Shown here piece by piece: positions 18,708 through 51,332 of a DNA stretch of 64,000 bases (position 1 is its first letter; each line of letters begins with the position of its first letter). The notes under the pieces are model-generated. The model was given only the letters and a program-made list of their open reading frames with translations. It was not told the origin of the DNA and ran no database searches. The position numbers and the translations under genes were made by a program. The stretch comes from Escherichia coli (GTDB lineage Bacteria; Pseudomonadota; Gammaproteobacteria; Enterobacterales; Enterobacteriaceae), in assembly GCF_044647545.1 (NCBI RefSeq), contig NZ_CP172818.1, one strand, 5' to 3'.

Positions 18708-20165
18708 ATGAATACATCTCATGTAAGAGTTGTTACTCATATGTGTGGGTTCCTGGTTTGGCTCTATAGTCTTTCAATGTTGCCACCAATGGTTGTAGCA
18801 TTGTTTTATAAAGAAAAAAGCCTGTTTGTTTTCTTTATAACTTTCGTTATATTTTTTTGCATTGGTGGCGGAGCGTGGTATACAACTAAGAAATCTGGCA
18901 TTCAATTACGTACCCGTGATGGGTTTATTATAATTGTAATGTTTTGGATTTTGTTTTCTGTTATTAGTGCATTCCCTTTATGGATTGACTCAGAACTTAA
19001 TTTAACGTTCATTGATGCTCTGTTTGAAGGGGTTTCTGGAATAACAACAACAGGAGCAACTGTAATTGATGATGTTAGTTCATTACCTCGGGCATATTTG
19101 TACTATCGGTCACAGTTAAATTTTATAGGTGGTTTAGGAGTTATTGTTCTGGCGGTTGCTGTATTGCCATTATTGGGTATTGGTGGTGCAAAGCTTTATC
19201 AGTCAGAAATGCCGGGGCCATTTAAGGATGACAAACTCACTCCCCGCCTGGCCGATACGTCACGGACACTGTGGATAACTTATTCTTTATTAGGTATTGC
19301 TTGTATTGTCTGTTATAGACTTGCAGGAATGCCTTTGTTTGATGCTATTTGTCACGGGATTTCCACAGTTTCGCTTGGTGGTTTCTCAACTCATAGCGAG
19401 AGTATCGGATATTTTAATAACTATTTGGTTGAGCTGGTGGCTGGTTCTTTTTCCCTGCTATCGGCTTTCAACTTCACTCTTTGGTATATTGTTATTAGCA
19501 GGAAAACGATAAAACCTTTAATCAGAGATATTGAACTTCGTTTCTTTCTGTTAATAGCCTTAGGGGTGATCATTGTTACCTCTTTCCAGGTCTGGCATAT
19601 AGGTATGTATGACTTGCATGGAAGTTTTATTCATTCGTTTTTTCTTGCCAGCTCCATGCTCACTGATAATGGTTTAGCTACGCAGGATTATGCAAGTTGG
19701 CCCACGCACACGATAGTGTTTTTGCTGTTGTCAAGTTTCTTTGGGGGATGTATAGGTTCAACTTGTGGTGGAATTAAGTCACTTCGATTTCTTATACTTT
19801 TCAAACAAAGCAAACACGAGATAAATCAGCTTTCTCATCCCAGAGCGTTGTTGAGTGTAAATGTAGGAGGGAAGATAGTTACAGATCGTGTAATGAGGTC
19901 TGTATGGAGTTTCTTTTTTCTTTATACTCTCTTCACGGTGTTTTTTATACTGGTGTTAAATGGTATGGGATATGATTTTCTTACATCATTTGCAACAGTG
20001 GCTGCATGTATTAATAATATGGGATTAGGTTTTGGGGCTACTGCATCGTCATTCGGAGTGCTTAATGACATTGCAAAATGCTTAATGTGCATAGCTATGA
20101 TTCTTGGTCGCCTTGAAATTTATCCTGTTATTATATTGTTTTCAGGTTTTTTTTGGCGCTCCTAA
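18708..20165 (+). CDS. trkG: Potassium uptake protein TrkG (TrkH paralog)
   Basis: 485 aa from internal ATG (MNTSHVRV); multi-pass membrane protein; AT-rich. Confidence 0.9.
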   Translation: MNTSHVRVVTHMCGFLVWLYSLSMLPPMVVALFYKEKSLFVFFITFVIFFCIGGGAWYTTKKSGIQLRTRDGFIIIVMFWILFSVISAFPLWIDSELNLTFIDALFEGVSGITTTGATVIDDVSSLPRAYLYYRSQLNFIGGLGVIVLAVAVLPLLGIGGAKLYQSEMPGPFKDDKLTPRLADTSRTLWITYSLLGIACIVCYRLAGMPLFDAICHGISTVSLGGFSTHSESIGYFNNYLVELVAGSFSLLSAFNFTLWYIVISRKTIKPLIRDIELRFFLLIALGVIIVTSFQVWHIGMYDLHGSFIHSFFLASSMLTDNGLATQDYASWPTHTIVFLLLSSFFGGCIGSTCGGIKSLRFLILFKQSKHEINQLSHPRALLSVNVGGKIVTDRVMRSVWSFFFLYTLFTVFFILVLNGMGYDFLTSFATVAACINNMGLGFGATASSFGVLNDIAKCLMCIAMILGRLEIYPVIILFSGFFWRS

Positions 20166-20302
20166 TATATGGCTGATTTATAATTGTGAGTTTAATATTA
20201 TGTTGACTCACTCATTGATCCAATACCTAACTTTACCAGCAACACCTCCGTCCCCAGTAGCACTGGCTGCTGGGGTGCGTTTTATTCATAAAGCAAGGCT
20301 GT

Positions 20303-20566
20303 ATGAGCGAGAAATTAAAGATAGTCTATCGCCCATTACAAGAATTGTCACCGTATGCGCACAACGCCAGGACGCACAGTACTGAGCAGGTGGCACAACT
20401 GGTAGAAAGTATTAAGCAATTCGGCTGGACTAATCCGGTGCTGATTGACGAAAAGGGCGAAATTATTGCGGGTCACGGTCGTGTTATGGCGGCTGAAATG
20501 CTCAAAATGGATTCTGTTCCGGTCATTGTTCTGTCTGGCCTGACGGATGAGCAGAAGCAGCGATAA
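20303..20566 (+). CDS. ynaK: ParB-like nuclease-domain fragment protein YnaK
   Basis: 87 aa with ParB N-terminal-like motif (GHGRVMAA). Confidence 0.75.
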   Translation: MSEKLKIVYRPLQELSPYAHNARTHSTEQVAQLVESIKQFGWTNPVLIDEKGEIIAGHGRVMAAEMLKMDSVPVIVLSGLTDEQKQR

Positions 20567-20906
20567 CGATCAGTATCGCTCCCGTAATGCATTAATCCGT
20601 CGCCACATTGAGAAAATGGATGCCAGTTTGCACGTCGGAACGAAGGAGTTTGATATTTCAAAGGTTTCCGAGGTGGATTCTGTTGATGATTTACTCATTG
20701 ATAATGCCGCTCGTTATCTGCTGAAAGACTGGAAAGGGGTTGGTGAACTGGTTAATGGTGTTGAGGTTGCACTGGAATATACGGCAGAACGAGGGATCGC
20801 GCTGCTTAAGCAGAATCCAGAGTTGTACTGGCAGATCCTTGCAGAAGCAGCCAGCATCGCCCAGGGTAAAGAGCAGCAGAAGCAGGATACGATAAAAAAG
20901 CCATAG
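20547..20906 (+). pseudogene. ydaY: Prophage gene remnant YdaY
   Basis: 119-aa ORF overlapping ynaK end; no recognisable complete domain. Confidence 0.5.
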
Positions 20907-21379: not shown

Positions 21380-22408
21380 ATGGCAGAGCAAACCTCGCGT
21401 CTCGCAATAATTATTGATAGCACTGGAGCGAAAAATAATGCTGACAATCTGACCTCCTCATTAGTCAAAATGACGCAGGCTGGGGAAACTGCTGCAAATA
21501 GCGCAGGGAAAGTGACTAAGGCAACAGAAGATGAGAAGAACGCGCTCGCAAAATTAAAAGCAGCTATTGATCCAGTTGGTGCCGCAATTGATACTGTCGG
21601 TCGACGCTATTCTGAATTAAAGAAATTTTTCGATAAAGGGCTTATTGATAAAGAAGAATATGAATTTCTTGTCCGTAAACTTAATGAAACCACAGAGGAA
21701 TTGAGCGGGGTTGCGCAAGCGCAGAGAGAAGCCGAGAAGGCCGGAAAACTTGCTGCCGCTCAGCAGGAAGCGCAGGCTCAGGCCTTTCAAAGAATGCTGG
21801 ACAAGATCGACCCTCTGGCTGCGGCGCTAAGAAATCTTGAACAACAGCATGATGAACTTAATGCTGCGTTTGCATCCGGGAAAATAAATGGTTCTCAGTT
21901 TGAGAATTATAGCCGAAAAATACAGGAAACACGGCGAGAGCTTACCGGAGAGGCTCAGGCAGAGCGAGAAGCAGCAAAAGCGCATGATGAACAGGTTGTT
22001 GCTTTGCAACGTCTGATTGCTCAACTTGATCCTGTCGGAACTGCTTTTAATCGTCTGGTAGAACAACAGAAACAGCTCAATGAAGCAAAAGCTAAGGGGA
22101 TGCTTTCTCCTGAAATGTATGAGGAGCTTTCTGGAAAACTTCGTGCTATGCGGAGTGAGCTTGAGGTTACTCAATCACAATTAAGCAAAACCGGAATGTC
22201 GGCAAAACAAACGGCTTTTGCTATGCGCATGTTGCCTGCACAAATGACGGATATTGTTGTTGGGTTGTCCACTGGTCAGTCGCCATTTATGGTGTTAATG
22301 CAGCAGGGCGGCCATTCAGCTATGCAGGAGACAAGAATCGCCAGCTTACCCGTTACAGCGATACCCGCTGGCATGAAGATTCAGTGCGTAACCGCTGGTT
22401 CAGCATGA
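21380..22408 (+). pseudogene. tmpR: Tail tape-measure protein, N-terminal fragment
   Basis: 342-aa coiled-coil-rich ORF typical of tape-measure N-termini; far too short for a full TMP. Confidence 0.7.
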
Positions 22409-22524: not shown

Positions 22525-23720
<1,196 letters not shown>

Positions 23721-23910
23721 CAAGGGGAAAACGCACGATGTGCTGACCGGAAGTGATGACGATCGCCACAGCAACACGTCTCTGGCGTGGGGAGCTGGCG
23801 TGCAGTTTAACCCGACCGAATCCGTGGCCATTGACATTGCTTATGAAGGCTCCGGCAGTGGCGACTGGCGCACTGACGGTTTCATCGTGGGTGTCGGTTA
23901 TAAATTCTGA
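23721..23910 (+). pseudogene. lomR: Lom-family outer membrane protein, C-terminal fragment
   Basis: Ends with OMP beta-barrel signature ...GFIVGVGYKF; resumes after IS5. Confidence 0.7.
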
Positions 23911-23974
23911 TTAGCCAGGTAACACAGTGTTATGACAGCCCGCCGGTTCAGGCGGGCTTTTTTGTGGAGTGGAT

Positions 23975-26900
23975 ATGGCAGCAGTAAAAATCTCAGGTGT
24001 GCTGAAAGATGGTGCGGGAAAACCAATACAGAACTGCACTATTCAACTGAGGGCAAAGCGTAACAGCACCACGGTACTGGTGAACACGGTGGCCTCTGAA
24101 AATCCGGATGAAGCCGGGCGTTACAGCATGGATGTTGAGTATGGCCAGTACAGCGTCACCCTGCTGGTTGAAGGTTTTCCGCCTTCACATGCCGGAACCA
24201 TTACCGTCTATGAAGGTTCCAGACCAGGTACGCTGAATGATTTTCTCGGTGCCATGACGGAAGATGATGTCATGCCGGAGGCATTGCGTCGTTTTGAGGC
24301 AATGGTGGAAGAAGCGGCACGCAACGCGTCCGCGGTGGCACAGAACACGGCAGCCGCGAAGAAGTCAGCCAGTGATGCCAGCACATCAGCCCGTGAGGCG
24401 GCAACCCATGCGGCTGATGCTGCGGACTCAGCACGCGCAGCCAGCACGTCAGCCGGACAGGCCGCGTCGTCGGCTCAGTCAGCGTCTTCCAGCGCAGGAA
24501 CGGCATCAACAAAGGCCACTGAAGCATCAAAAAGTGCTGCCGCTGCAGAGTCCTCAAAAAGCGCGGCGGCCACCAGTGCCGGTGCGGCGAAAACGTCAGA
24601 AACGAATGCTTCAGCGTCACTACAATCAGCAGCCACATCTGCATCCACCGCGACCACGAAGGCATCAGAAGCTGCGACCTCGGCCCGGGATGCGGCGGCC
24701 TCAAAAGAAGCGGCAAAATCATCAGAAACGAACGCATCATCAAGCGCCAGTAGTGCAGCTTCCTCGGCAACGGCGGCAGGAAATTCCGCGAAGGCGGCAA
24801 AAACGTCCGAGACGAACGCCAGGTCTTCTGAAACGGCAGCGGGACAGAGCGCCTCGGCTGCGGCAGGCTCAAAAACAGCGGCTGCGTCGTCTGCCAGTGC
24901 AGCGTCAACAAGTGCCGGGCAGGCCTCAGCCAGTGCCACCGCCGCCGGAAAATCGGCAGAAAGCGCCGCATCGTCTGCTTCAACAGCCACAACGAAGGCT
25001 GGCGAAGCCACTGAACAGGCCAGCGCAGCAGCGAGGTCTGCTTCCGCAGCGAAGACATCCGAAACGAACGCGAAAGCGTCGGAAACAAGCGCAGAATCCT
25101 CAAAAACGGCTGCCGCATCGTCAGCCAGTTCGGCGGCGTCATCGGCATCATCGGCGTCTGCTTCAAAAGATGAGGCGACCAGACAAGCGTCAGCAGCGAA
25201 GAGCAGCGCCACGACGGCATCCACGAAGGCGACAGAGGCTGCTGGCAGTGCGACGGCGGCAGCTCAGAGCAAAAGTACGGCGGAATCCGCGGCAACGCGC
25301 GCCGAGACAGCAGCTAAACGGGCAGAGGATATTGCATCCGCCGTGGCGCTTGAGGATGCAAGTACGACGAAAAAGGGGATAGTACAGCTCAGCAGTGCGA
25401 CCAACAGTACGTCTGAAACGCTGGCGGCAACGCCAAAGGCAGTAAAATCAGCCTATGACAATGCAGAGAAACGTCTGCAGAAAGACCAGAACGGCGCTGA
25501 TATACCCGATAAGGGATGCTTCCTGAACAACATTAACGCGGTCAGTAAAACAGACTTTGCTGATAAGCGTGGTATGCGTTATGTGCGGGTTAACGCTCCT
25601 GCAGGTGCAACATCTGGAAAATATTACCCTGTTGTTGTTATGCGTTCTGCTGGCTCAGTAAGCGAACTGGCATCAAGAGTCATTATCACCACGGCAACGC
25701 GAACCGCAGGCGATCCGATGAATAACTGCGAGTTTAACGGATTTGTTATGCCTGGTGGCTGGACTGACAGGGGGCGTTATGCTTATGGCATGTTCTGGCA
25801 ATATCAAAACAATGAACGAGCCATTCACTCAATAATGATGAGTAATAAGGGCGATGATTTGCGCTCTGTGTTCTATGTTGATGGCGCTGCTTTCCCTGTT
25901 TTTGCGTTTATTGAAGATGGCCTGTCAATATCCGCACCTGGTGCTGATCTCGTTGTTAATGATACGACCTATAAGTTTGGGGCAACAAATCCGGCGACTG
26001 AATGTATCGCGGCGGACGTTATCCTTGATTTTAAGAGTGGGCGTGGTTTTTATGAGTCTCATTCGTTAATCGTTAACGATAACTTGTCGTGCAAAAAACT
26101 TTTTGCCACAGACGAAATTGTAGCGCGTGGTGGTAATCAGATTCGAATGATAGGTGGGGAGTATGGTGCATTATGGCGTAATGATGGCGCTAAAACTTAC
26201 CTGCTGCTTACCAATCAAGGTGATGTTTATGGTGGCTGGAATACATTAAGACCGTTTGCTATTGATAACGCAACCGGCGAACTGGTTATTGGAACCAAAC
26301 TGTCCGCAAGTCTGAACGGTAATGCATTAACAGCAACAAAGCTGCAAACGCCAAGACGGGTTTCTGGTGTTGAGTTTGATGGTTCCAAAGATATTACTTT
26401 AACCGCCGCGCATGTGGCTGCTTTTGCCAGAAGGGCAACGGATACATATGCCGATGCGGATGGTGGCGTTCCATGGAATGCCGAATCTGGCGCTTACAAT
26501 GTCACCCGCTCTGGCGACAGCTATATTCTGGTTAACTTCTATACCGGAGTCGGAAGTTGCCGGACCCTGCAGATGAAGGCGCATTACAGAAATGGTGGTC
26601 TGTTCTACCGTTCTTCAAGAGACGGTTATGGTTTTGAGGAAGACTGGGCAGAAGTTTATACCTCGAAAAATCTTCCACCAGAAAGCTACCCAGTCGGCGC
26701 ACCAATCCCGTGGCCATCAGATACGCCACCTGCAGGTTATGCAATCATGCAGGGGCAGACGTTTGATAAGGCAGCATATCCGAAACTGGCTATTGCCTAT
26801 CCTTCTGGTGTTATTCCAGATATGCGCGGCTGGACAATCAAGGGCAAACCCGCCAGTGGTCGGGCCGTATTGTCTCAGGAACAGGATGGCATTAAATCGC

Positions 26901-27340
26901 ACACCCACAGTGCCAGCGCATCCAGTACGGATTTGGGTACGAAAACCACATCGTCGTTTGATTACGGTACTAAATCAACGAATAACACAGGTGCACATAC
27001 CCACAATGTATCTGGTACTGCAAATAGTGCTGGCGCACATACTCATACCGTTCCATTAAGGAGACCAAACAGTGGCGGTATGAATTTCGACTGGCTGGAT
27101 GGTTCATCAAGTGGCACGGTGGTGGGGAATGGAACTGTGCCTTCTTCTGGCGCACATACCCACTCAGTATCAGGTACCGCTACAAGTGCTGGGGCACATG
27201 CACACACTGTTGGTATTGGCGCTCATACGCACTCTGTTAAGATTGGTTCACATGGACACACCATCACCGTTAACGCTGCTGGTAACGCGGAAAACACCGT
27301 TAAAAACATCGCATTTAATTATATTGTGAGGCTTGCATAA
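23975..27340 (+). CDS. stfR: Side tail fiber protein
   Basis: ~1121 aa; Ala/Ser/Thr-rich repeats in the middle, HxH repeats near the C-terminus. Confidence 0.9.
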
Positions 27341-27915
27341 TGGCATTCAGAATGAGTGAACAATCACGTACCGTAAAAATTTATAACCTGCTGGCCGGAA
27401 CTAATGAGTTTATTGGTGAAGGTGACGCATATATTCCACCTCATACAGGGCTGCCAGCTAATTCTACAGATATCGCCCCACCGGAAATTCCTGCTGGCTT
27501 TGTGGCAGTTTTTAACAGTGAAAATGAATCGTGGAATATTGTTGAAGACCATCGTGGTAAAACGGTCTATGACGTGGCGTCGGGGGACGCATTGTTTATT
27601 TCTGAACTCGGACCGCTACCAGAGAATGTCACCTGGTTGTCGCCAGCAGGGGAGTATCAGAAGTGGGACGGCGTATCCTGGGTGAATGATGAGGAAGCAG
27701 AAAAACTGTTTCGGATACGGGAAGCGGAAGAAAGAAAAAGCAACCTGATGCAGGTAGCCAGTGAGCATATTGCGCCGCTTCAGGATGCTGCAGATCTGGA
27801 AATTGCAACGGAGGAAGAAACCCCGTTGCTGGAAGCATGGAAAAAGTATCGGGTATTGCTGAACCGTGTTGATACGTCAACTGCACAGGATATTGAATGG
27901 CCAGCACTGCCGTAG
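27340..27915 (+). CDS. tfaR: Tail fiber assembly protein
   Basis: 191-aa ORF start-overlapping stfR stop; Tfa-like. Confidence 0.85.
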
Positions 27916-28012
27916 GGTAAAACATATAAATTCTATAATTAGATGTATCTTTCCATTTACGGCAAGGAAGGGGGCTTGGAAGACGTAAAGCATCTCACAC
28001 CGAGATTATTTT

Positions 28013-28603
28013 TTATATGTCAGGTGTCTGAAGTTTTGCTTTGGCTCTTAAAATGGTTTGCCGCGAGGTTTTGAATTCCCGGGCAATGGCACTTATACTT
28101 ACACCTGACTTAATTCGTTCGAATACCACCTGTTTCTGTTCTTCATTTAACACAGGTGGTCGACCAAAACGTTTCCCTGCGCCGCGGGCTCTTACTATCC
28201 CGGAATGAGTGCGTTCAAGTAAAAGGTCTCGTTCAAATTCAGCGACTGCTGAAATTACTTGCATCATCATTTTTCCTGTTGGACTGGTCAGGTCAATGCC
28301 ACCCAATGCTAAGCAATGCACTCTGATACCTGTTTCGGTCAGTTGTTCCACTGTTTTCCTGATATCCATTGCATTACAACCAAGGCGATCCAGTTTTGTC
28401 ACAATCAATTGATCACCACATTTCAGGCGAGCAAGCAACCGGTTAAAACCAGGACGCTCACTGGTTGCTGCTGAGCCGCTAATGTGTTCTTCGATTATTT
28501 GCTGAGGTTTGATTTTAAAACCTGCACTTTCGATTTCCCGGCGTTGATTTTCGGTGGTCTGATCCAGCGTTGATATCCGACAGTAAGCAAAAATTCGAGA
28601 CAT
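28013..28603 (-). CDS. pinR: Serine recombinase / DNA invertase (Pin/Gin/Hin family)
   Basis: 196 aa; N-terminal catalytic Ser region (YCRISTLDQ); C-terminal HTH. Confidence 0.9.
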
Positions 28604-28919
28604 AGTGAGACTCTATACGAAATTGGTGTTCATATCATAATGCATCTCAGAAAATAATTATGATTATTTTTGTGCATATTTGTATGTACACGTTCGAAAA
28701 TAAACGAATGCGTATGCAACCCCGTAATTTTGGTGAGACCCAAAATCGATTTTGTGAAAAAAGGCTTTAACTCGGTTTGTTTTTCGAGTTCCGGGCGGAC
28801 TCAAGGAAGAAGAATAGTGTTGCGTGTTATTTTAACCAGATTTCAAGTTGTTTGGTCGTGGAAAAGTGGAGCAAAATGTTGTTAAAGTGGAAAAATGATA
28901 AAAAAGTAAGTTTATTATA

Positions 28920-29153
28920 TTACATTTTACCATTTAAATTTTGGTTGTCTTTAAGAACTGATATCGCTGTTTGTAATAATTCTTTGTTATCCAGCCATGA
29001 TTTTTTCTTTATGTTTCCTTCAATGTAATCAAGCAATGTTCTGGTATTGATAGGTCTTCCCTGTTTTGCTACTTCCACTACAGCATCCCCTAGGATAATT
29101 CTTACTTCAGGAAGCTGCGCAGGGAACCACTTTAGGGTGTCTTTTGATTTCAT
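28920..29153 (-). CDS. ynaE: Rac prophage protein YnaE (YdfK-like)
   Basis: 77-aa product from internal ATG (MKSKDTLKWF...) of ORF 28920..29258. Confidence 0.75.
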   Translation of the reverse strand: MKSKDTLKWFPAQLPEVRIILGDAVVEVAKQGRPINTRTLLDYIEGNIKKKSWLDNKELLQTAISVLKDNQNLNGKM

Positions 29154-29882
29154 GAAGATATTCCTTAAAATATTATTGATTTTCATTGCGATATTGTATG
29201 TCTGATTCAGGATATGTTGACTTATACATCGGTTTTGTCTGGTTATTGGATATGCCAATCCCTAATTTTATTAGAGCATGACTAAAAATGCTGAATATGA
29301 TAAGGAGCGAAGTGATTATCAGTATGCTGTTCATATAGCCTCGAATTAGTAATGTGTTATATATGATATAGTTGACAATTTTTATCCTGGGTGTTCTTAA
29401 AGTTCGTAGATAAACATTGTCGTTTCAGGTATACAGGAATGCTAACAGGTGGCGGCAAAAATCAGGCGGTTTATGGCGCAAGCTGAAGTGGCAACTGCAA
29501 ACTATCTTATGCAGAGACTCTACACGGATTGGGTTTAAAAGTATACATAGATAACAGTTTTTATCTGAAGAAGAAAAATATCAAGGTGATATAGCCTATA
29601 TGCCTTTGATGCGGAGGAATGAATGTGATGGGAGTGATGTATCTGAATAGTTGAAAAACCGCAGTCACGTCGTATGCAAGAACGTGCTGCGGTTGGTTTG
29701 ACTTTGATTGAGACGTTTTGGAATTTTTTTCGGTGGCAAAAATGGGGCAAAACGCTGCAAAAGGGGCAAAAAAGGGGCAAAAAAAGAGTGGATTATCGTA
29801 GCTTATTGTTGTCGCTGATGATATTTAACACATTGAAAAATAAGTAAAATACTTATGAGTCAGAGAGTTGTGATTTTTGCCC

Positions 29883-29936
29883 TTACTTGTTCAGGTTGTA
29901 TTGTTCTTTCTTACTAATTTCTTGATTTTGCGACAT
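29883..29936 (-). pseudogene. ttcC: Remnant of displaced original ttcA 5' end
   Basis: ATG at ~29936 reads [17 protein letters not shown] then stop at the att repeat boundary. Confidence 0.5.
29887..29929. repeat. Prophage attachment-site core repeat, distal copy
   Basis: Identical 43 bp to 6788..6830. Confidence 0.75.
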
Positions 29937-30111
29937 TTAAAAGCGACTCAATTCGTTATATGGCATCAGAAGAGTATGCGTCATGCCGGAACGCCCAGCA
30001 TAAGAAATCTGATATAAAAACTGTGGCGTGTATGGTACGGATTAGAGGGGAAAATGTCAGCACATTTGCGAAATGAATCAAAAAGCCCGCAGCAATGTGC
30101 GGGCGTTAGTG

Positions 30112-41297: not shown

Positions 41298-42203
41298 TTA
41301 GCGGAATTTACGTCGATACTCGCCTGGCGTCATCCCAAAGCGTTGCTTAAATACCGTTGAAAAATGACTCTGGTCGGAAAATCCCCAATGAAAGCCAATG
41401 CCTGCCAGTTTTTCATCATCTGCGGCATGGCGAATCGCATCTGCACAAAAATCGAGACGACGGTTACGGATATATTGCGCGACTACCAAACCTTTATCGG
41501 CAAACATTCGGTACAAACTACGTACTGACATACCTGTCTCTCCGGCTATCCACTCCGGGCGTAATATCTCTTCGCGAATATTATCGTCTATCAACGTAAC
41601 CACTTTTTGAAACTGACGTTCACGACGAGGTTGAACAGATTCCCGCTGATGAAGTACCGGGCGCAGCAGACACACCATCGCCTGTAGCGCAGCTTCACTT
41701 TCTGTTTCAGAAAGTGCCGGATTATTCATGCTCTCCTGTAACAGGCGATGACTGAGTTGCACCATGGGTAAGTCAGCGTCCAGTCTTTCTGCGCAGATAG
41801 GTTTTTGATGGGGAAAATATTGTTCCAGCAGAGTGCGTGGCAAAAGTAATGAAATCTGTTTAGAAGACTCCTGCCAGTAAAGCGAACAGGGGCGTGAGGC
41901 ATCGAGTAACGTAATATCGCCAGCGCCAATCTGCACCTGACGCTCATCCTGCTCCATTATTGCCTGACCACTAAGCTGAAAAACGGTGTAAAACCAGGCA
42001 TCGTCGCTGCCTTTTACTTCCTGCCAGGTGCGGGATAAATTCACCCCGCTGGTTGTCACGGTACTCAGCTTTAGTCCTTTGGCAAAATGCGTGTCCAGTA
42101 CACCCGTGTAACGCTCAGTCAGCAGGCGTCCGGTAAAATTTCCGCATACCTGATTGATTTGGGAAAGCCATTGCTGAAACTCATTATCCACTGCGGGGTT
42201 CAT
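41298..42203 (-). CDS. feaR: AraC-family activator FeaR
   Basis: 301 aa; C-terminal AraC HTH; divergent from feaB. Confidence 0.9.
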   Translation of the reverse strand: MNPAVDNEFQQWLSQINQVCGNFTGRLLTERYTGVLDTHFAKGLKLSTVTTSGVNLSRTWQEVKGSDDAWFYTVFQLSGQAIMEQDERQVQIGAGDITLLDASRPCSLYWQESSKQISLLLPRTLLEQYFPHQKPICAERLDADLPMVQLSHRLLQESMNNPALSETESEAALQAMVCLLRPVLHQRESVQPRRERQFQKVVTLIDDNIREEILRPEWIAGETGMSVRSLYRMFADKGLVVAQYIRNRRLDFCADAIRHAADDEKLAGIGFHWGFSDQSHFSTVFKQRFGMTPGEYRRKFR

Positions 42204-42435
42204 GGCACGTTTTCGCTCTGTGAAATGTATTTTTATTGTTGCATTTGTGTTGCAATAAACGAAGCTAATGAGCCTGACTATAGGAAATAAGTCTTGTCAG
42301 GCATAGAGACATAAGCGGTTATTGTCACGATTTGCGGAGCTTGTCACAGCTGACAAAGCGAATGTCACAGCGAAAAAAGTGACTTTTCTTGTCGCTGCGT
42401 ACACTGAAATCACACTGGGTAAATAATAAGGAAAA

Positions 42436-43932
42436 GTGATGACAGAGCCGCATGTAGCAGTATTAAGCCAGGTCCAACAGTTTCTCGATCGTCAACACGG
42501 TCTTTATATTGATGGTCGTCCTGGCCCCGCACAAAGTGAAAAACGGTTGGCGATCTTTGATCCGGCCACCGGGCAAGAAATTGCGTCTACTGCTGATGCC
42601 AACGAAGCGGATGTAGATAACGCAGTCATGTCTGCCTGGCGGGCCTTTGTCTCGCGTCGCTGGGCCGGGCGATTACCCGCAGAGCGTGAACGTATTCTGC
42701 TACGTTTTGCTGATCTGGTGGAGCAGCACAGTGAGGAGCTGGCGCAACTGGAAACCCTGGAGCAAGGCAAGTCAATTGCCATTTCCCGTGCTTTTGAAGT
42801 GGGCTGTACGCTGAACTGGATGCGTTATACCGCCGGGTTAACGACCAAAATCGCGGGTAAAACGCTGGACTTGTCGATTCCCTTACCCCAGGGGGCGCGT
42901 TATCAGGCCTGGACGCGTAAAGAGCCGGTTGGCGTAGTGGCGGGAATTGTGCCATGGAACTTTCCGTTGATGATTGGTATGTGGAAGGTGATGCCAGCAC
43001 TGGCAGCAGGCTGTTCAATCGTGATTAAGCCTTCGGAAACCACGCCACTGACGATGTTGCGCGTGGCGGAACTGGCCAGCGAGGCTGGTATCCCTGATGG
43101 CGTTTTTAATGTCGTCACCGGGTCAGGTGCTGTATGCGGCGCGGCCCTGACGTCACATCCTCATGTTGCGAAAATCAGTTTTACCGGTTCAACCGCGACG
43201 GGAAAAGGTATTGCCAGAACTGCTGCTGATCACTTAACGCGTGTAACGCTGGAACTGGGCGGTAAAAACCCGGCAATTGTATTAAAAGATGCTGATCCGC
43301 AATGGGTTATTGAAGGCTTGATGACCGGAAGCTTCCTGAATCAAGGGCAAGTATGCGCCGCCAGTTCGCGAATTTATATTGAAGCGCCGTTGTTTGACAC
43401 GCTGGTTAGTGGATTTGAGCAGGCGGTAAAATCGTTGCAAGTGGGACCGGGGATGTCACCTGTTGCACAGATTAACCCTTTGGTTTCTCGTGCGCACTGC
43501 GACAAAGTGTGTTCATTCCTCGACGATGCGCAGGCACAGCAAGCAGAGCTGATTCGCGGGTCGAATGGACCACCAGAGGTATTATGTTGCGCCAACGCTA
43601 GTGCGGTAAAATCCCGATGCTAAATTGCGCTTAACTCGTGAAGAGGTGTTTGGTCCGGTGGTAAACCTGGTGCGAGTAAGCGGTGGAAGAGGCGTTACAA
43701 CTGGCAAACGACACGGAATATGGCTTAACTGCCAGTGTCTGGACGCAAAATCTCTCCAGGCTCTGGAATATAGCGATCGCTTACAGGCAGGGACGGTGTG
43801 GGTAAACAGCCATACCTTGATTGACGCTAACTACCGTTTGGTGGGATGAAGCAGTCAGGAACGGGCCGTGATTTTGGCCCCGACTGGCTGGACGGTTGGT
43901 GTGAAACTAAGTCGGTGTGTGTACGGTATTAA
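42436..43932 (+). pseudogene. feaB: Phenylacetaldehyde dehydrogenase, 3' part frame-disrupted here
   Basis: Aldehyde dehydrogenase ORF stops at 43623 (395 aa); homologous sequence continues in another frame (43625..43849). Confidence 0.75.
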
Positions 43933-43952
43933 TATTGGTTCGCTAATTAAGT

Positions 43953-43979
43953 AAAAAACGGCACCTGGTGCCGTTTTTT
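43953..43979. terminator. Bidirectional rho-independent terminator between convergent feaB and tynA
   Basis: aaaaaacggcacctggtgccgtttttt (A-run, hairpin, T-run). Confidence 0.55.
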
Positions 43980-43991
43980 GTCTGAAAACAA

Positions 43992-46266
43992 TCACTTATC
44001 TTTCTTCAGCGCCCCTAGCGTTGGCGTTTCATAAAGAAGTTCCATGGTTTAAGCAGAGTATGTACCCATTCGGTCGGCATAATCGGCCACTCTTCAGCAC
44101 GGGCCACATGTGTGGTGCCGGTGGGTCATCCAGACAACGGCGTCGGTGTTGTCCAGCGACTCGTTATCTTTACTGTATTGTCCAAGACCGGTGTCATCAG
44201 TAGAACGGTTCAGGATATTTGCCTTCCGGGAAACGCTCGCCAGGATGATAACGCGTTACCCAGAAAGCTGCTTTGTCCATAAAGCTTAAACGATGATAGA
44301 TCCACTCATCCCAGGCGCCACTGGGCACCTTTTGCTACCGGGTGAGTACCGCCTGCATAAGGAATAATTTGATAGGAAACTGGATTGCCCATGCGGTTCT
44401 CTTTGTTGCGGGTTACTCAACAGACGAATCATGCCCCGGATCAAACTACGGCATCCTGTTCATTGCCGATGTTGTACTGATTAACTTGCATCAAGGTACT
44501 GGTGCGTCGGCCACCGGCAGTATTCGGTTTCCACTGGGTCCATCGCCACCAGGCTGTTATTCTCGCCATCTACATAAGGAATCGAGGCAGAAATTATCGA
44601 TCTGTTTGGTGTCAGTACCCACGATACTGTGATCGATAAGCGTGCCGTAGCGCGTGTCATCTTTCGCCGTCTCATCGTGCATGGTTTTCGCTTTAACACC
44701 TTTCACCGCTTCGATGCCCGTAGCACCGGCATCAATGCCAATAGTGCCGTTTTCATGGAAGATCCAGTCAAAATGTAGTCATAGTTACCCACTGTACTGA
44801 TCCAGCGCACCACTGACTCCCAGCATTCAGGTACTGACGTTGGGCTGGCCCATTTCCTGATGCTTATACTCCGGCCCGGCATAACGTTTCAAATACCGCG
44901 ATAGCGCGAGGATCTCCATCGGCACGCCAGTGTAGTCGGCGATGGTTTCATTAAGGAGCACTGCGTTAGACGGGGCATCTTTACCACGGCGAAATTGGTG
45001 AGGTTAGCGTGCCCATACCGTAGTCACCAGAGTCCAGATACGCTTTAAAGTACCAGCCAATATCCAGGATCACCGTAAGGCACAATAATGTCGCCGAGGA
45101 GAACCTTCGTGCATGACTTTGCGTTTGGTGCCGATATTGGTATATAGTCACGGTGGAGATCATAGGCCCGACGCGAGAGTTCATGCTGAGGTGAAAATCC
45201 CAGTTCCGCCAGTGAATAGTATCTCGCCAGTAATGGTGTAATTTTTACCTTCAGGCTCAATGATTTGCATAGGCTTGACTGCCGGAGCAACGCGGTCACG
45301 GCTATCAAATGGGCGTGCGGTCATTCACACGGAACTCCGGACCTTCTTCAATCTTAACGATTTTTTTCTGTTTCTGATCAACGACCGCCACCAGGTTTTC
45401 GATGGGATGTGCCCAGTAGTTCCATCGCCGACAGTCAAGATAGCTGATGACTTTGAGCAACCGGGCATCTTGTTTCAGGCCATCTTTACCATCGAAATAA
45501 CCTACGGTCAGCGGCGTGGTAATCACTTTTTTCGCATCAGTAATACCGCGTTTCTTCACGGCAGCGGCAAATTCTTCACTGTTGTTAATAATGTTCTGCA
45601 CACTGGCGAAATCATCCAGCAACACCATACCCGTGGCGTGTTTAATGGGTTCCAGGAGAGCAGTTTGTTGTTTTGCAGATCCACCACCGCTTCGATGATA
45701 TGTTTGCCGTCGAGCATAATGACGTCGGCTTTGCGCGGCTGGTCAACCGGTTTGTTTTCCAGCGCAAACGCCCAGACAGCTTCTTTATCTGGCGGTAGCA
45801 GGAGATCTCAGTAAAACAGGGTATTGGGTTTGAAGTCCCGCGGAAGCTTTAACAATTTCAACGGCCTGTTTAATTTCGTACCACAGTTCACGCATTAAGT
45901 GGGTGAGGGCGCTTTTATTACCTGAAAGGTTTGATCCAGACCGGACTGGAAAACATCGTTAATAAAGGTGTCGCAAAACCCAGGCCTTATTGTCTTTCAT
46001 ACGCTCCCGGCACTTGCAGTGCCAAGGTAGCCATTAACAATTGCTGTTTTGCGCACCAGGCTTCACTTTCACGTACGCGCCATCTTTAATCAGGGTAAAG
46101 ATCTGGGCGTAGTCGTCCCACTGCACATCGGCACCAAATTCTTTAAGCGTTTCATCCATTGGCACCATATGCGCTTCACCACCGTGGGCAAATACCGGCG
46201 CTTGCCAGGCGAAACTTAAGGCGACTGCCAACGCCAGGGTTGTTTTACGGGCAGAATCCGGAGAAA
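43992..46266 (-). pseudogene. tynA: Copper amine oxidase, heavily frame-disrupted here
   Basis: C-terminus GALKKDK at 43992; recognisable TynA-like fragments in ORFs 44481..44699, 44981..45184, 45305..45628, 46034..46315 in different frames. Confidence 0.7.
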
Positions 46267-46525
46267 GAGGGCTTCCAGTTATTAACCTCGTCAGATGTTG
46301 TGTTCTTGTTAGCAACCGCGCTCTGTGGGCGGTTTAGTCAGGTTCACATTATGAGTACTGATGCAAAGAAATCCTGCACCTCAGAGTTATTTGGCAGGTG
46401 TGCCCACTTTTTCATACAGTGGGTGCCCTGAAAATCAATGTACACATCATGCATAATGTGACAACGTCACAAAAGTTAGTGAAATGAAAAAGGGCAACTG
46501 TTCGGGCCGTTGCCCTTCATTCACC

Positions 46526-48563
46526 GATTAATCGACAAAATCACCATATCCTGGCCACCAGCGTCAGAATTGAATACAGCGCCACCGGGGTTTGATGCTG
46601 ATTGAATACCTCTACCGCCCATTCCACCACCTGTTGGTTTTTCTTCTGCGCTACGCTGTTTTTTCAGCGTCTTGCGCTTACAGGTGAGACGCACCTGGAT
46701 GGTATCGCCTGGCTTTACGGGTTCGATAAGCGCAAGTTTTCCAGCCCATAATTAGCAATGACCGGACCGACACCGGCATCGACAAACAGACCCGCAGAGC
46801 CGCAGAAAAAGCACAAAATACCCATGCACCACACGCTCACCGAAAATAGATTCGGCAGCAGCAGAATATTATCCATATGCGCATAGAAATAATCGCCGCT
46901 GAGGCAAGCAAAGTTAACAATATCGGCCTCTGTCATTGTGCGGCGGGAGTGGCAGGTATCCGCCTGGTTGTAGCTCCTCAAAATATTTGCGGAACGGATG
47001 AATACGATCTTCTTCGACTTTCGCACCACGCACCCACTGTTTACTGATAGCTGCAAGCATCGTCGGACTACCCTGAACAGCGGTTCGCTGCGTGTGATCC
47101 TTCACCCGCTCGTAAACCACCTAATTCTTCACCGCCTCCTGCGCGACCAGGCCCACCATGTAACAGTTGTGGCAGTCGGAGAGCCATGCCGGTGGATTCT
47201 TTTGCCGATTCCTCATTGAGGATCTGAATTCGCCCATGCGTACGTGCCGCGTCGGTAATAAACTGACGCGCAATTTGCGGATCAGCCGTCACCAGCGTTC
47301 CGCAAGGCTACCGCCGCCTGCACAAGCCAGTTGCAGAGCATGTCGCTGGTTTTGTGCTGGCATCAGCGTTGCGACAGGGCCAAAGGCTTCTGTTGCATGT
47401 ACCGCCGGTGTTTCATCCGGCTGCGGACAGTACAATAAGGTTGGCGGGAAAGAGCACCCGCAGCAGATAAATCCGCCTGACCACCGAGGCGAATCTCGCA
47501 TCCTGCAGCCAGCAATATGTTCACTTTTTCCTGCACATCGGCACGCTGCTCAGCATTTACCAGTGCGCCCATATTCACGCCTTCCTGAGCAGGATCACCG
47601 ACCACGACTTTCTGTAATCGCGCAACCAGGACGATTCACTGACAGCATTAACCAATGCCTGCGGCGCGATAATCCGCCGGATTGCCGTACATTTTTGCCC
47701 GGCTTTTGTGGTCATCTCACGCACAACTTCACGAATAAACAGCGCAAACTCCGAGTTAAATGCGGGTAACATCTTCGCCCAGTACGCAGCAGTTCAGGGA
47801 ATCAGCTTCCATAGTGAAGGGGATAGATTTGGCGACGATATTTGGCTGAACTCGCGGCGTCTCTGCAGGTCGCCGCTGACCCGTGAAAGTCACCACATCC
47901 TGGCTGTCCAGATAATCCAAAAGGTCGCCCGCACTACCGCAGATCAGACTAATTGCGCCTTCGGGAACAAGACCACTATCGACAATTGATTTCACCATCG
48001 CCTGAGTACGTTGGGCCGTCGCGGTAGCTGGTTTGATGATGGCTGGCATTCCGCCCAGCCACGTTGGTGCCAGCTTCCGGCGTTTTGCCACAGGGGAAGT
48101 TAAAGGCGTTAATATGCACTGCCACGCCTGAGCTTTGAGGTCAGTACATGGCGCGCGGCAAATCCACCTTCTTTCGATAAGGGGATCAATTCATCTTCCG
48201 GCCACAGCGTATCGTCGGCGGCTGCCCGGCTACCGAGGCTGGCGTAAGTAAATAACGTCCCAATGCCACCTTCAAATCAACCGAACTGTTGCCGCGTTGC
48301 GCCTGTTTGCGCAGAAAGACATAGAAGCGCTCTTTTTTCACTCAGCAGATGTTTAGCGACCGCTTTAAGCATCGCCGCACGTTCGATAAAGGTCATCACG
48401 CAGAAGCAGCCTTTTCAATGGCAAACTGCAACGGGCCACCGCCATATAGACCTTTCACTGGTCACTTCCCATAACGCCTCGCCGCTGATAGCGTGGTGAA
48501 TCAAACGGCTACCACCCCGCCAGACTGCCAGGTACCGGATAAGAAACTGGCTAACTGCTGCAT
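46526..48563 (-). pseudogene. paaZ: Bifunctional PaaZ, heavily frame-disrupted here
   Basis: N-terminus MQQLASFLSGTWQSG at ~48563; fragments spread over at least 7 short ORFs; terminator hairpin at ~46488..46516. Confidence 0.7.
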
Positions 48564-48796
48564 CGCTACTCTCCAGATGTTTCACATTTATGTTGCTAAT
48601 AGTTAAATTGCGAATCATAAAAAGCAAGGGTTCTTTTAACGAAATGTTAACTATGCAAATATGTATCACAACTGCGGAAAACATTAATGCACTGATAAAT
48701 AATGATTTATAAAAAATCGGGTGCGAAATCCGTCACAGTTCAAGCATACAAAATTTGTGATTTTAGTTAACCATTGTGTAACTTTCATAAACAATG

Positions 48797-48834
48797 TGAT
48801 TCGTGTTTTTAATTAATTCGCGAACTTGGAATCG
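48797..48834. promoter_or_regulatory. PaaX-operator-like inverted repeat in paaZ-paaA divergent promoter region
   Basis: TGATTC ... GAATCG half-sites ~26 nt apart. Confidence 0.35.
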
Positions 48835-48846
48835 TAAAGGTAATAA

Positions 48847-49773
48847 CATAACCCAAGAAGAACGCTTTGAGCAACGGATAGCCCAGGAAACGGCTATCGA
48901 GCCGCAGGACTGGATGCCAATAAGAAAGCACTGATCCGCCAGATTGGGCAGCATGCACACTGCAAATTGTGGTATGTTCCTGAAGGTAACTGGATCACTG
49001 GCGCACGACCTTTTGCAGCATAAAGCCATTCTGTTCGCCAAAGTCCAGGATGAAGCCGGTCATCGTCTGTATCTCTATAGCGCCGCCGAAACACTGGGCT
49101 GCACAGAGAAGACATCTACCAAAAAATGCTCAAACAACGATAAATATTCCTCCATCTTTAATTATCCGACATTGGTCTCCAGGGGCTGATATCGGCGTTA
49201 TCGGCTGGCTGGTGGAGTAGCAGCGATCGTCAATCAGGTGGCGTTATGTCGCACTTCTTATGGCCCGTATGCCAGAGCAATGGTGAAGATCTGCAAAGAA
49301 GAGAGTTTTTCACCAGCGTCAGGGGTTTGAAGCCTGCATGGCACTGGCGCAGGCGGCGAAGGACGCTCAAAAGCAGATGTTGCAAGACGCCATTAACCGT
49401 TTCTGGTGGCCAGCCTTAATGATGTTCGGGCCAAACGATGATAACTCGCCAAACAGCGCCAGAAGTACCGCCTGGAAAATCAAACGTTTCACCAACGACG
49501 AACTCGCCAGCGTTTCGTGGATAACACCATTCCACAGGTTGAAATGCTCGGTATGACCGTTCCTGACCCGGATCTGCATTTTGACACTGAAAGCGGTCAC
49601 TACCGCTTTGGTGGAAATCAACTGGCAGGAGTTTAACGAAGTAATTAACGGTCGCCGGAATTTGTAATCAGGAGAGGCTCGACGCCAAACGTAAAGCCTG
49701 GGAAGAAGGTACCTGGGTACGGGAAGCAGCGCTGGCCCATGCACAAAAACAACTTGCCCGTAAGGTCGCATAA
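48847..49773 (+). pseudogene. paaA: PaaA-like monooxygenase subunit, frame-disrupted, no ATG at expected start
   Basis: Frame begins ata-acc-caa (ITQEERFEQRIAQETAIEPQDW) then stops; later fragment in ORF 49338..49556. Confidence 0.65.
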
Positions 49774-49784
49774 GGAGATTCAAA

Positions 49785-50077
49785 ATGAGTAATGTTTATT
49801 GGCCGTTATACGAAGTTTACCCGTTCGTGGCAAACAGGGCTTATCACACCGCCATGTTGGCAGTTTTTACATGCTGCCGATGAGCGGATGGCACTGAAAA
49901 TGCCGGTGATTGTTACACCGTCGTAGCGAAGGATGTTCAATTTGGGTGGTGAAGGCGAGTGAAATTGTTGCCTCGCAACCGGAAGAACGCGGTGAATTTT
50001 TTGATCCGGCTGAAGCAAGGTCTATCGCCATCCAACGTTTTACACCATCCCTGATGGCATTCAACATGAGGTCGGAA
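49785..50077 (+). pseudogene. paaB: PaaB-like subunit, 3' end frame-disrupted
   Basis: MSNVYWPLYEV... start at 49785; later part in shifted frame (ORF 49910..50149). Confidence 0.6.
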
Positions 50078-50820
50078 ATGAATCAGTTAACGGCTTACAC
50101 CTTCGCCTGGGCGATAACTGCCTGGTGCTTCCAGCGGTTGGGTGAATAGTGCGGTCATGCACCGGAACTGGAAATCGATCTCGCACTGGCAAATATTGGA
50201 CTCGATTTATTAGGCCAGGCACGCAACTTCTTATCGTATGCCGCTGAATTAGCGGGAGAAGGCGATGAAGATACCCTGGCCTTCACCCCAACAAGCACCA
50301 GTTCAGCAACTTATTGTTGGTTGAACAGCCAAACGGCAATTTTGCCGACAACCGTCGCCAGTATTTCATCGATGCATGGCATGTGGCGCTCTTTACCATT
50401 CTGATGGAGAGCCGTGATCCGCGACTGGCGGCGATTTCTGCAAAGCGATTAAAGAAGCGCGTTATAGCCTGCGTTTTATTCGTGGCTGGCTGGAGCAACT
50501 GGGCAATGGTACTGACGTATACGGGCGAAAGAATGCCAGCAGGCCATCAACAAGTTGTGGCGTTTTACCGCCGAACTGTAGATGCCGACGAGATTGATAT
50601 TGCACTGAGTGAAGAGGGTATTGCGGTTGATCCACGCGCTTTTACGCGCAGCGTGGGAAGCCGAAGTTTTTGCCGGGATCAACGAAGCCACATTCAACGT
50701 ACCGCAGAGCAGGCGTATCGCACTGGCGGTAAAAAAGGACTGCATACCGAACACCTTGGACCCATGCTGGCAGAAATGCAGTTATTGTTTGAGCGTGTCT
50801 TGCCCGGTCAGCAATGGTAA
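50078..50820 (+). pseudogene. paaC: PaaC-like subunit, frame-disrupted
   Basis: MNQLTAY start at 50078; C-terminal part in ORF 50314..50820. Confidence 0.65.
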
Positions 50821-50834
50821 CAGAGGAGGTGGGT

Positions 50835-51325
50835 ATGCAACGTATCAGCCACCATTCCGCCGCCACAGGTTCATCCAGATATGGGCGCTACTGGGCGCGA
50901 TCCCGGACCGGAGATCCCGGTGCTGACCATTACCGATTTAGGCATGGTGCGTAATGTGACACAGATGGAAAGAATGGGTGATCGGCTTTACGCCGACTTA
51001 TTCCGGTTGTCCGGCAACGGAACGTTGATTGGCGCGATACGTGAGGCAATGACAACCCACGGGTTTACCCGTACGGTTGTGCTGCAACTCGACCCGGCAT
51101 GGACCACCGACTGGATGACCCCCGATGCCCGTGAGCGTCTGCGACGGTATGGCATTAGCCCGCCCGGCCGGAACAGTTGCCGGCCCATTTGCCGCCAGAA
51201 GTACGTTGCCCGCGCTGCGCCAGCGTCCATCCACACTTATCAGTGAATTTGGTTCCACGGCCTGCAAAGCATTGTACCGCTGCGATAGTTGCCACAAACC
51301 TTTCGATTATTTCAAATGTATTTGA
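50835..51325 (+). pseudogene. paaD: PaaD-like protein, frame-disrupted
   Basis: MQRISHH... start; fragments in ORFs 50881..51246 and 51125..51325 (ends ...FDYFKCI). Confidence 0.65.
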
Positions 51326-51332
51326 GGATGCC

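Follow-up and report, generated by a model that had tools for sequence, protein, structure and literature searches.

The closest described systems for the locus examined here are the side tail fibre of bacteriophage lambda and gp37 of bacteriophage T4. Lambda Stf (gpStf of Ur-lambda) is a trimer whose N-terminal part, gpStfN, forms a collar on the tail; a proximal coiled coil (residues 102-393) is followed directly by a hinge, and a gp37-like receptor-binding domain binds OmpC (PMC12617516). In T4, the gp37 needle holds seven coordinated irons (PMC6957217, PMC11705849), and the residues binding LPS and OmpC lie in the tip subdomain (PMC6957217). Fibres of the Stf type are known from earlier work, as are their coiled-coil rod and their gp37-like, iron-binding tip, and there is little in the present locus that is biologically new.

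We analyzed a stretch of 64,000 nucleotides from Escherichia coli (assembly GCF_044647545.1, contig NZ_CP172818.1), hereafter the window, in which a gene on the plus strand (23975..27340) codes for 1121 aa if the count starts at the ATG at 23975; a GTG in the same frame precedes it, at 23969. Judged by its sequence, it is stfR, the gene of a modular side tail fibre, in a K-12-like Rac lambdoid prophage. The name stfR had been proposed in a preliminary description made from the letters alone, and it is right, though the allele is only 94.8% identical to that of K-12 over its full length. Its neighbours are those found in K-12, namely the ynaA/tmpR pseudogene, an IS5 inside lomR, tfaR, and pinR. 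The lomR fragment (23449-23910, PF06316) lies upstream of stfR, and tfaR (27340..27915, plus strand; PF02413 Caudo_TAP, E=2.5e-42; tfaR in the K-12 annotation), which codes for a tail fibre assembly chaperone, overlaps the end of stfR by one base, giving the gene order lomR, stfR, tfaR. TfaR, whose gene adjoins stfR, would be the folding chaperone of the fibre. The prophage is defective, with a truncated tape-measure gene and the IS5 in lomR, so that assembly of the fibre may never take place in this host. The complete reading set out below, i.e., a modular Rac fibre with a coiled-coil rod, a gp37-type tip, and accidental overlapping ORFs, is in our view highly probable; the three earlier observations on this DNA (the repeats, the overlapping frames, and the HxH block) are real, and known biology accounts for them.

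The Pfam families found in StfR are PF08400, PF21446, PF07484, and PF03335. The first corresponds to the N-terminal tail-attachment (collar) domain (23981..24379, plus strand; phage_tail_N, E=1.4e-67, 226 bits for a cut-off of 26.6), which also matches the N-terminal domain of the lambda tail fibre in the cryo-EM entries 9e7m/9mgh (E=4e-48) and would attach StfR to the tail. After the rod, the fibre would continue with a hinge and with distal domains that have relatives in Mu S and T4 gp34: the post-rod segment, or hinge region (25295..25540, plus strand), is homologous to fibre protein S of phage Mu (phmmer matches to 5yvq and 8ju3, covering StfR query aa 441-522), and a T4 gp34-like trimerisation domain lies further downstream (25964..26263, plus strand; PF21446, E=3.4e-27; PDB 4uxe, 5nxf, and 9x3r, E~1e-11). 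StfR has the PF08400 domain, the position between lom and tfa, and the long proximal coiled coil of lambda Stf-type fibres. It shares with lambda Stf the order lom, stf, tfa, the Ala/Ser heptad rod (83.6% DNA identity where aligned), the gp37-like C-terminus, and the Tfa chaperone; it differs in that its rod exceeds that of lambda by 15 heptads (315 nt), its distal part includes an additional gp34-like domain (PF21446), its receptor-contact loop is another one, and the host element is a defective prophage.

The rod (24299..25348, plus strand) is a proximal coiled coil of about 50 uninterrupted heptads of the form x-S-A-x-x-A-x, in which the core positions a and d are Ala and g is Ser. The preliminary description saw here a low-complexity quasi-repeat of AAKTSETNA units; the periodicity stands, and a period shows up in the self-comparison of StfR as it had expected, while its wording under-describes a strict, unbroken run of heptads. 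AAKTSETNA occurs in three exact copies and K[ST]SETNA in four, with spacings of 42, 28, and 84 residues, every one a multiple of 7, the real period being 7 residues (21 nt). The autocorrelation of identities has a peak at each multiple of 7 between lags 7 and 119 and at no other lag (z = 7-10.7 against 300 shuffles; about 10 at lag 7), and the stacked register holds for about 50 rows, or for 47 heptads (24362-25348) under stricter scoring. Tandem Repeats Finder, run on 23900-27400, returned only one array (9 nt x 2.4 copies) and missed the heptads, because their copies have diverged too much as DNA; it took the protein sequence to reveal the period. An AF2 monomer of aa 90-530 is helical throughout the rod region; as it folds back into a bundle, a monomer artefact that says nothing on the oligomeric state, we took it as evidence of helicity only. 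With Ala at both core positions, some 50 heptads would build a thin alpha-helical coiled-coil rod, about 50 nm long at 0.148 nm per residue, and the fibre would, like that of lambda, be a trimer.

The C-terminus carries a receptor-binding tip of the T4 gp37 type, made of collar, needle, and tip (26681..27337, plus strand; PF07484 Collar, E=9.5e-11, and PF03335). With phmmer, aa 903-1121 of StfR match chain residues 27-242 of the T4 structure 2XGF with E=1.3e-84 over 219 aa. Within it, a block of seven HxH motifs (26900..27259, plus strand), putative Fe2+ sites, has its motifs at aa 976, 1008, 1022, 1061, 1075, 1084, and 1093, counted from the ATG at 23975; when the last 250 aa are shuffled, chance gives a mean of 0.7 motifs, and seven or more were reached in 0 of 10,000 shuffles. 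The block contains an internal duplication of 63 nt (26990-27052 and 27149-27211). These motifs had been said to resemble the HxH repeats of phage fibre tips, and the likeness goes beyond resemblance, as the block matches the solved gp37 tip with all seven motifs aligned. An AF2 monomer of the C-terminal 228 aa, built on a 3-sequence alignment, gave a pLDDT of 37.2 and a pTM of 0.16, too poor a model to inform on the needle fold; an intertwined, metal-bound trimer is not expected to model as a monomer, and the match to a crystal structure makes this modelling test unnecessary.

StfR and gp37 share the collar domain and the seven HxH motifs over about 219 residues, including an identical C-terminal stretch of 11 residues, and both need a chaperone encoded directly downstream. 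The likeness is limited to the last ~220 residues, the rest of the protein being unrelated; conservation does not extend to the tip subdomain (T4 residues 932-959), and the chaperone is of the Tfa type (PF02413) instead of gp38 plus gp57A. The StfR equivalent of that subdomain is a hypervariable loop between HxH 3 and HxH 4 (27047..27154, plus strand), in which the differences from K-12 StfR, as well as those from T4, cluster. By analogy with T4 and lambda, this loop is probably the receptor contact, the receptor probably being OmpC and/or LPS, and in the trimer the seven HxH motifs contributed by each chain would come together as seven octahedral Fe2+ sites. The heptad period, the homologies, and the statistics of the ORFs discussed below are shown by the present analysis; we infer the trimeric state, the iron binding, and the receptor of StfR from its relatives.

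Two other readings of these protein features have to be weighed. The Ala/Ser/Thr-rich region could be an unstructured, flexible linker produced by repeat slippage rather than a folded rod: its composition is extreme (74% A+S+T over the 352 residues at ~115-466, nt ~24310-25370, with 133 Ala, 86 Ser, and 41 Thr), no Pfam domain covers it, and Tandem Repeats Finder finds almost nothing there, the copies being only 60-80% alike as DNA. The heptad phase, however, is unbroken across about 350 residues, with Ala almost always at position 6 of the heptad and Ser almost always at position 2, and the AF2 model is helical with a pLDDT of 70-88 over much of the region. Length differences between homologous rods, as read from their sequences, are whole heptads or ±3 residues, preserving the register: besides the rod of lambda, that of P0108 is 28 aa shorter, and those of P0046 and P0057 carry register shifts of −3 and +3 aa, known in classical terms as stutter and stammer. 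A coiled-coil model of the lambda Stf side fibres has, moreover, been fitted into cryo-ET density (PMC12617516). We, thus, give the linker very little credence; the region is a coiled-coil rod of the type already described for lambda Stf and not unstructured low complexity. For the tip, the HxH motifs could be a conserved beta-strand signature binding no metal here, or a metal other than iron, T4 gp37 being the only case of known iron occupancy. Against this, the alignment to 2XGF is nearly gap-free, most residues being identical (about 70% by eye), and the seven HxH pairs keep register; of the 14 His residues between aa 970 and aa 1100, none lies outside an HxH motif; and the motifs are invariant in the allele of the window, in K-12 StfR, and in the fibre of a phage-plasmid discussed below, while the loop between them diverges. 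A tip without iron is, in our opinion, very unlikely, and we retain seven iron sites as the preferred reading.

Turning to the ORFs overlapping stfR, the preliminary description had listed three long frames that should not be annotated, and all of them are present in the ORF list at exactly the coordinates it gave. One is in the +1 shifted frame of the plus strand (24264..25382, 372 aa). The other two are antisense: 24270..25295 (minus strand, 341 aa), whose codons read positions 2 and 3 of a stfR codon and position 1 of the next one, and 24475..25224 (minus strand, 249 aa), which shares the wobble position with stfR and in which an Ala codon still means Ala when taken from the other strand. 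Ala, Ser, and Thr are encoded by GCN, TCN, and ACN. Such codons cannot make a stop in the majority of the shifted and antisense phases, and T precedes A so seldom where two codons meet that the remaining stops are lost as well; this is why the frames are open on both strands. In the frame of 24264..25382, the heptads bring no stop at all, since Ala, Ser, and Thr codons have C as their second base; 39% of synonymous recodings left a stretch of equal or greater length open, and the product matches no Pfam or PHROG family. For 24475..25224, a run at least as long appeared in 27-49% of recodings, so that neither of these frames is longer than expected. Nominally, 24270..25295 is, its length being equalled in 0 of 1000 recodings; it exceeds them because NCT|A (CTA) codon junctions are depleted in its region (1 observed vs. 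8.0 expected, p≈2e-4 within the region). The view that the ORFs are by-products is supported by these simulations, by the comparison of homologues, and by the phase of substitutions; it holds for all three, with the reservation that 24270..25295 is longer than the amino-acid sequence predicts and also needs the avoidance of CTA junctions.

Could at least one of these ORFs, for instance 24270..25295 or the phrog_560 frame, be a real gene? Antisense ORFs of this kind are annotated in lambda and ev099 and form PHROG families. The product of 24475..25224 matches phrog_560 end to end (E=1.4e-121), and its counterpart by position is likely the lambda orf206b, an antisense annotation within the equivalent region of lambda stf; the first 63 aa of the 24270..25295 product match phrog_3324. 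A PHROG family, however, reflects here only repeated calls by gene finders; the products are of nonsense-like composition, and no promoter-like site was found upstream of either antisense start. That orf206b was scored as non-essential by CRISPRi is uninformative on coding. The depletion of stops in 24270..25295, which goes beyond the amino-acid explanation, speaks for a gene, but avoidance of the junctions concerned extends to the remainder of stfR (OR 0.28) and to the other, unrelated genes of the window (OR 0.59). The depletion has p≈0.15 when the rest of stfR is taken as background and p≈0.01 with the other genes of the window, and this measured codon-context bias explains it only partly. 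What decides against antisense coding of 24270..25295 is that stops interrupt the frame in four of six homologues (ev099, 2H10, mEp332, and mEp460), at different places, and that substitutions among homologues follow the frame of stfR (302, 78, and 62 at codon positions 3, 1, and 2, respectively), the most variable sites falling on the second codon position of the antisense frame. As for 24475..25224, a first test showed fewer transversions at its two-fold degenerate sites (OR 0.43, p=0.014), but this signal follows the next base, that is, whether a GCN codon comes after, and not antisense degeneracy, and ordinary genes used as a control show it in the same direction. We, therefore, rejected antisense coding of this frame too, the signal being a next-base context effect. 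The homologues give no sign of a frame kept intact under purifying selection of its own, and there is no degeneracy-linked constraint once context is controlled for. A real gene among these ORFs is thereby very improbable, and we put a slimmer chance still on the antisense frames being something other than pure accident in the form of a real antisense product or of a selection on the antisense strand common to lambdoid stf genes, which the scarcity of stops in 24270..25295 and the recurrent calls of 24475..25224 (phrog_560) would then reflect. We keep the reading of all three ORFs as by-products of the rod.

The StfR of K-12 Rac (WP_000279097.1) occupies the same locus with the same neighbours, including the IS5 in lomR. 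No differences were found in the alignment across about 24400-26700, and megablast against K-12 gave 99.7% identity for 24300-25500; the two proteins differ by a patch in the N-terminal ~140 residues and by the tip. In a three-way alignment read in 50-nt bins, a replacement patch (about 26720..27700) covering the tip of stfR and about two thirds of tfaR shows no difference from the fibre tip and tfa of a P2-like phage-plasmid of E. coli of about 48 kb (NZ_CP024865.1), while its flanks are identical to K-12; it is this phage-plasmid allele that alters the loop between HxH 3 and HxH 4. DNA identity to the phage-plasmid is 100% over ≈26750-27700, i.e., the fibre tip and most of tfa, whereas the N-terminal two thirds of its fibre are unrelated and its context is a myovirus-type baseplate, with V/J/I genes; the plasmid also carries repA. 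Among the matches listed, 26850-27340 is found at 100% in at least 12 records of ~47-49 kb. The exact combination of a K-12-like body and a swapped tip was found in none of 5,426 complete E. coli genomes; the complete genomes that match best belong to K-12 strains, at 97.5%.

As pinR (28013-28603) is adjacent to the tfa end of the fibre locus, we considered a pinR-controlled invertible fibre segment of the Mu G, P1 C, or e14 P type, and rejected it: no crossover core of the AAACCNNGGTTT type was found near pinR, nor were convincing inverted repeats found flanking the fibre segment. The locus holds only one fibre C-terminus and one tfa.

The clean swap of about 1 kb, comprising the tip and its chaperone, is a textbook case of receptor-tip exchange between siphovirus-type and myovirus-type elements. 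The main value of the present analysis lies in annotation, as by-product ORFs of the rod are present in public data (lambda orf206b, ev099 gp23/gp24, phrog_560, and phrog_3324) and sit as “hypothetical proteins” in the lambda reference genome and in ev099; in the RefSeq record of the latter, they even take the place of the real fibre gene over its 5' half. Any open frame overlapping an Ala/Ser/Thr heptad rod should, thus, be flagged, especially if it shares the wobble position of the real gene.

At 20-32 kb the window holds the right-hand end of a Rac-type prophage, in the same arrangement as in E. coli K-12. This end carries a tape-measure pseudogene (21380-22408, truncated), an IS5 element inserted in lomR (transposase 22672-23652, minus strand), the side tail fibre gene stfR (1121 codons, from the ATG at 23975 to 27340), the chaperone gene tfaR (191 codons, 27340-27915, Pfam Caudo_TAP) and the resolvase-family gene pinR (28013-28603, minus strand, Pfam Resolvase). 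The best full-length megablast matches are K-12 stfR/tfaR, at 94.8% identity; their neighbours in the MG1655 annotation are those of the window, with pinR adjoining tfaR in both, and collinearity with K-12 extends over all 64 kb of the window, from abgR to the paa operon by way of Rac (97.5-99.6% identity). A strong terminator-like hairpin (23937-23958; 8 pairs, 7/8 of them G-C, then a T run) separates the lomR remnant from the stfR start, and a rho-independent terminator is annotated between lom and stf of phage mEp460. Around pinR and tfaR (25500-30000), neither a gix/hix-type crossover core nor flanking inverted repeats nor an alternative fibre C-terminus were found, and this stretch appears to be without an invertible segment. 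Further along, 42000-53000 differs from K-12 by about 190 indels, mostly of one base, and no ORF above 200 aa is present at ~43.6-53 kb, the K-12 counterpart of which includes tynA, paaZ and paaA-C; the difference points either to poor sequence quality in that part or to heavy gene decay, and the neighbouring 54-58 kb is identical to K-12.

Pfam recognizes four domains in the stfR product: phage_tail_N (aa 5-137), Gp34_trimer (666-765), Collar (910-957) and a Phage_fiber repeat. PDB searches recover the N-terminal domain of the lambda fibre (9e7m) with aa 3-95, fibre protein S of Mu (5yvq and 8ju3) with aa 441-522 and with aa 814-908, and T4 gp34 with aa 707-778; StfR is a mosaic of fibre modules common to lambda-, Mu/P2- and T4-type phages. 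Such module mosaicism in fibres has been recognized since the early 1990s. The lambda–T4 similarity is cited in the Ur-lambda structure paper (PMC12617516). The comparison with MG1655 is itself patchy, with zero differences at ~24400-26700 and beyond 27750, and two divergent patches at 23800-24400 (the N-terminal domain) and ≈26720-27700. The latter covers the fibre tip and the first two thirds of tfaR between flanks identical to K-12; it shows 0 differences from the fibre tip/tfa of a ~48-kb plasmid carrying P2-like baseplate genes and repA (NZ_CP024865.1), and a dozen plasmids of this sort also match it at 100%. Tip and chaperone have thus been cleanly exchanged, and the same full-length stfR allele is absent from all 5,426 complete E. 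coli genomes searched.

The resemblance of the C-terminal HxH repeats to the metal-coordinating tips of phage fibres, proposed in the preliminary description, turned out to be stronger than claimed. Seven HxH motifs (aa 976, 1008, 1022, 1061, 1075, 1084 and 1093; nt 26900-27259) contain all 14 histidines of the segment, a number of motifs never reached in shuffled sequences (mean 0.7), and a 63-nt unit encoding GAHTHxVSGTAxSAGAHxHTV is duplicated, with one copy on each side of a central loop. In a PDB sequence search, aa 903-1121 match the T4 gp37 receptor-binding tip (2XGF) with E=1.3e-84, in a nearly gap-free alignment where 7/7 motifs are in register. Along the T4 gp37 needle, seven iron atoms are coordinated by HxH motifs from the three chains; the third and fourth motifs flank the "tip" subdomain (residues 932-959), which holds the LPS- and OmpC-binding residues (PMC6957217, PMC11705849). 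The equivalent StfR loop (aa ~1025-1060, nt 27047-27154) is the most divergent part of the protein with respect to both T4 and K-12 StfR; no variation is seen in any HxH motif or in the last 40 residues. By homology, the StfR tip would bind iron and may use a receptor of the same kind. An AlphaFold2 (AF2) model of the tip as a single chain reached a pLDDT of 37, a low confidence that is expected because the tip would be an intertwined, metal-bound trimer.

The central part of StfR had been described as a low-complexity Ala/Ser/Thr quasi-repeat. The repeat is real: residues ~115-466 are 74% A+S+T, AAKTSETNA is present in three copies and K[ST]SETNA in four. "Low complexity" is not the right term, as these motifs are the conspicuous parts of a far stricter seven-residue pattern. 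Residue-identity autocorrelation is raised at all multiples of 7 between lags 7 and 119 (z = 7.1 to 10.7, from 300 shuffles) and is at or below expectation at all other lags; stacked seven residues to a row, the protein shows x-S-A-x-x-A-x in about 50 successive rows (nt 24299-25348; 47 rows under stricter scoring), the register never being lost. In coiled-coil terms, the a and d core sites are positions 3 and 6: Ala almost always occupies position 6, and position 3 holds Ala, occasionally Glu, Lys or Leu. Modelled by AF2 as a monomer, aa 90-530 are helical throughout the heptad region, with a pLDDT of 70-88 over much of it; the folding back of this model into a bundle is a monomer artefact. 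The alignment of lambda stf shows a deletion of exactly 315 nt, or 15 heptads, the E. coli homologue P0108 is 28 residues (4 heptads) shorter, and homologues P0046 and P0057 deviate by -3 and +3 residues, accompanied by a corresponding shift of register, the stutter and stammer classically known from coiled coils; homologues keep the heptad register. The 2025 Ur-lambda paper describes gpStf as a trimer whose chain begins with a collar domain (1-91) and continues through a linker, a proximal coiled coil (102-393) and a hinge into a distal part, where a gp37-like receptor-binding domain binds OmpC (PMC12617516). Given the heptad register and this description, the region is a rod of a known kind rather than unstructured sequence, and its length would be ~50 nm if each residue adds 0.148 nm. 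Within 24551-25285, the otherwise all-Ala core has Glu at position a in six heptads and Lys in six (SETNA and SK-type heptads, often neighbouring), which may form salt-bridged or hydrated layers. Two genes, ltf (L-shaped tail fibre) of phage T5 and the one for the long tail fibre in a T5-like Salmonella phage, are 83-84% identical to ~116 nt of the rod (24704-24819), so T5-type fibres share this module.

Three long ORFs lie over the heptads in other frames, exactly where they had been reported: 24264..25382 (+), 24270..25295 (−) and 24475..25224 (−). Across the heptads, the stfR frame and the +1 frame have 0 stops, the +2 frame 10, the antisense frame in phase with stfR codons 29, and the antisense frames of 24475..25224 and 24270..25295 2 and 1, respectively. 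We kept the StfR protein fixed and redrew its synonymous codons 1000 times. The 374-codon +1 run was equalled or exceeded in 39% of recodings and the 262-codon run of 24475..25224 in 27% (49% with uniform codon usage), so these two ORFs follow from the amino-acid sequence alone, as by-products of the repeat. The 347-codon run of 24270..25295 was reached in 0/1000 recodings (median 99, 95th percentile 152 codons) and needs a further ingredient, the avoidance of CTA at codon junctions. This frame meets a stop only where an NCT codon precedes one that begins with A, a junction observed once against 8.0 expected (permutation p≈2e-4; Fisher p=7e-4). This junction is also avoided elsewhere in stfR (odds ratio 0.28) and across 37 further ORFs of the window (odds ratio 0.59, p=6e-6), and most of the effect is thus an ordinary bias against T preceding A where two codons meet; by hand calculation from the odds ratios, the residual p for the deficit is ~0.15 against stfR's own background and ~0.01 against that of the window.

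Comparison with six phage homologues (ev099, lambda, mEp332, 2H10, Cyrano and mEp460) points the same way: substitutions in the heptad region fall at stfR codon positions 3/1/2 in numbers of 302/78/62, and the 24270..25295 frame has stops at differing internal positions in ev099, 2H10, mEp332 and mEp460, which suggests by-products rather than genes. Substitution phase is unable to separate 24475..25224 from stfR because the two share their wobble position (GCN reads GCN on both strands), which is probably why gene finders favour this frame. Antisense constraint on this ORF seemed at first to be supported by fewer transversions at sites two-fold degenerate in its frame (OR 0.43, p=0.014), a direction also found in ordinary genes (OR 0.77). 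The contrast arises only from sites followed by GCN, 37% of which carry transversions; sites before ACN or AGY, four-fold degenerate in antisense, are as low (12-17%) as those before TCN or AAR (15-16%). As this breakdown tracks the following codon and not antisense degeneracy, the signal is a next-base context effect. No promoter-like site was found upstream of either antisense start.

Such ORFs have nevertheless entered public annotation. In lambda (NC_001416), orf206b is annotated on the opposite strand inside stf (20147-20767, minus) and is a likely counterpart of 24475..25224. The one functional result found on these ORFs is that CRISPRi knock-down of orf206b, like that of stf, leaves plaques without a phenotype (PMC10695390). 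The RefSeq record of phage ev099 has two antisense "hypothetical proteins", gp23 and gp24, over the stf heptad region (995-1857 of the ev099 stretch, L002), and leaves the 5' half of the fibre gene unannotated. The 249-position profile phrog_560 matches the 24475..25224 product end to end (E=1.4e-121), and phrog_3324 matches the start of the 24270..25295 product. NCBI records of near-identical StfR fragments (P0011, P0016, P0025 and P0031) are named "short-chain fatty acid transporter, partial", apparently a misnaming of tail fibre proteins. Overall, the observation in the preliminary description is confirmed and its interpretation supported, with the heptad coiled coil and the CTA-junction avoidance for one ORF as refinements. 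All the features belong to already-known kinds; the useful by-product is to show phantom ORFs inside reference annotations and a phage protein-family library.
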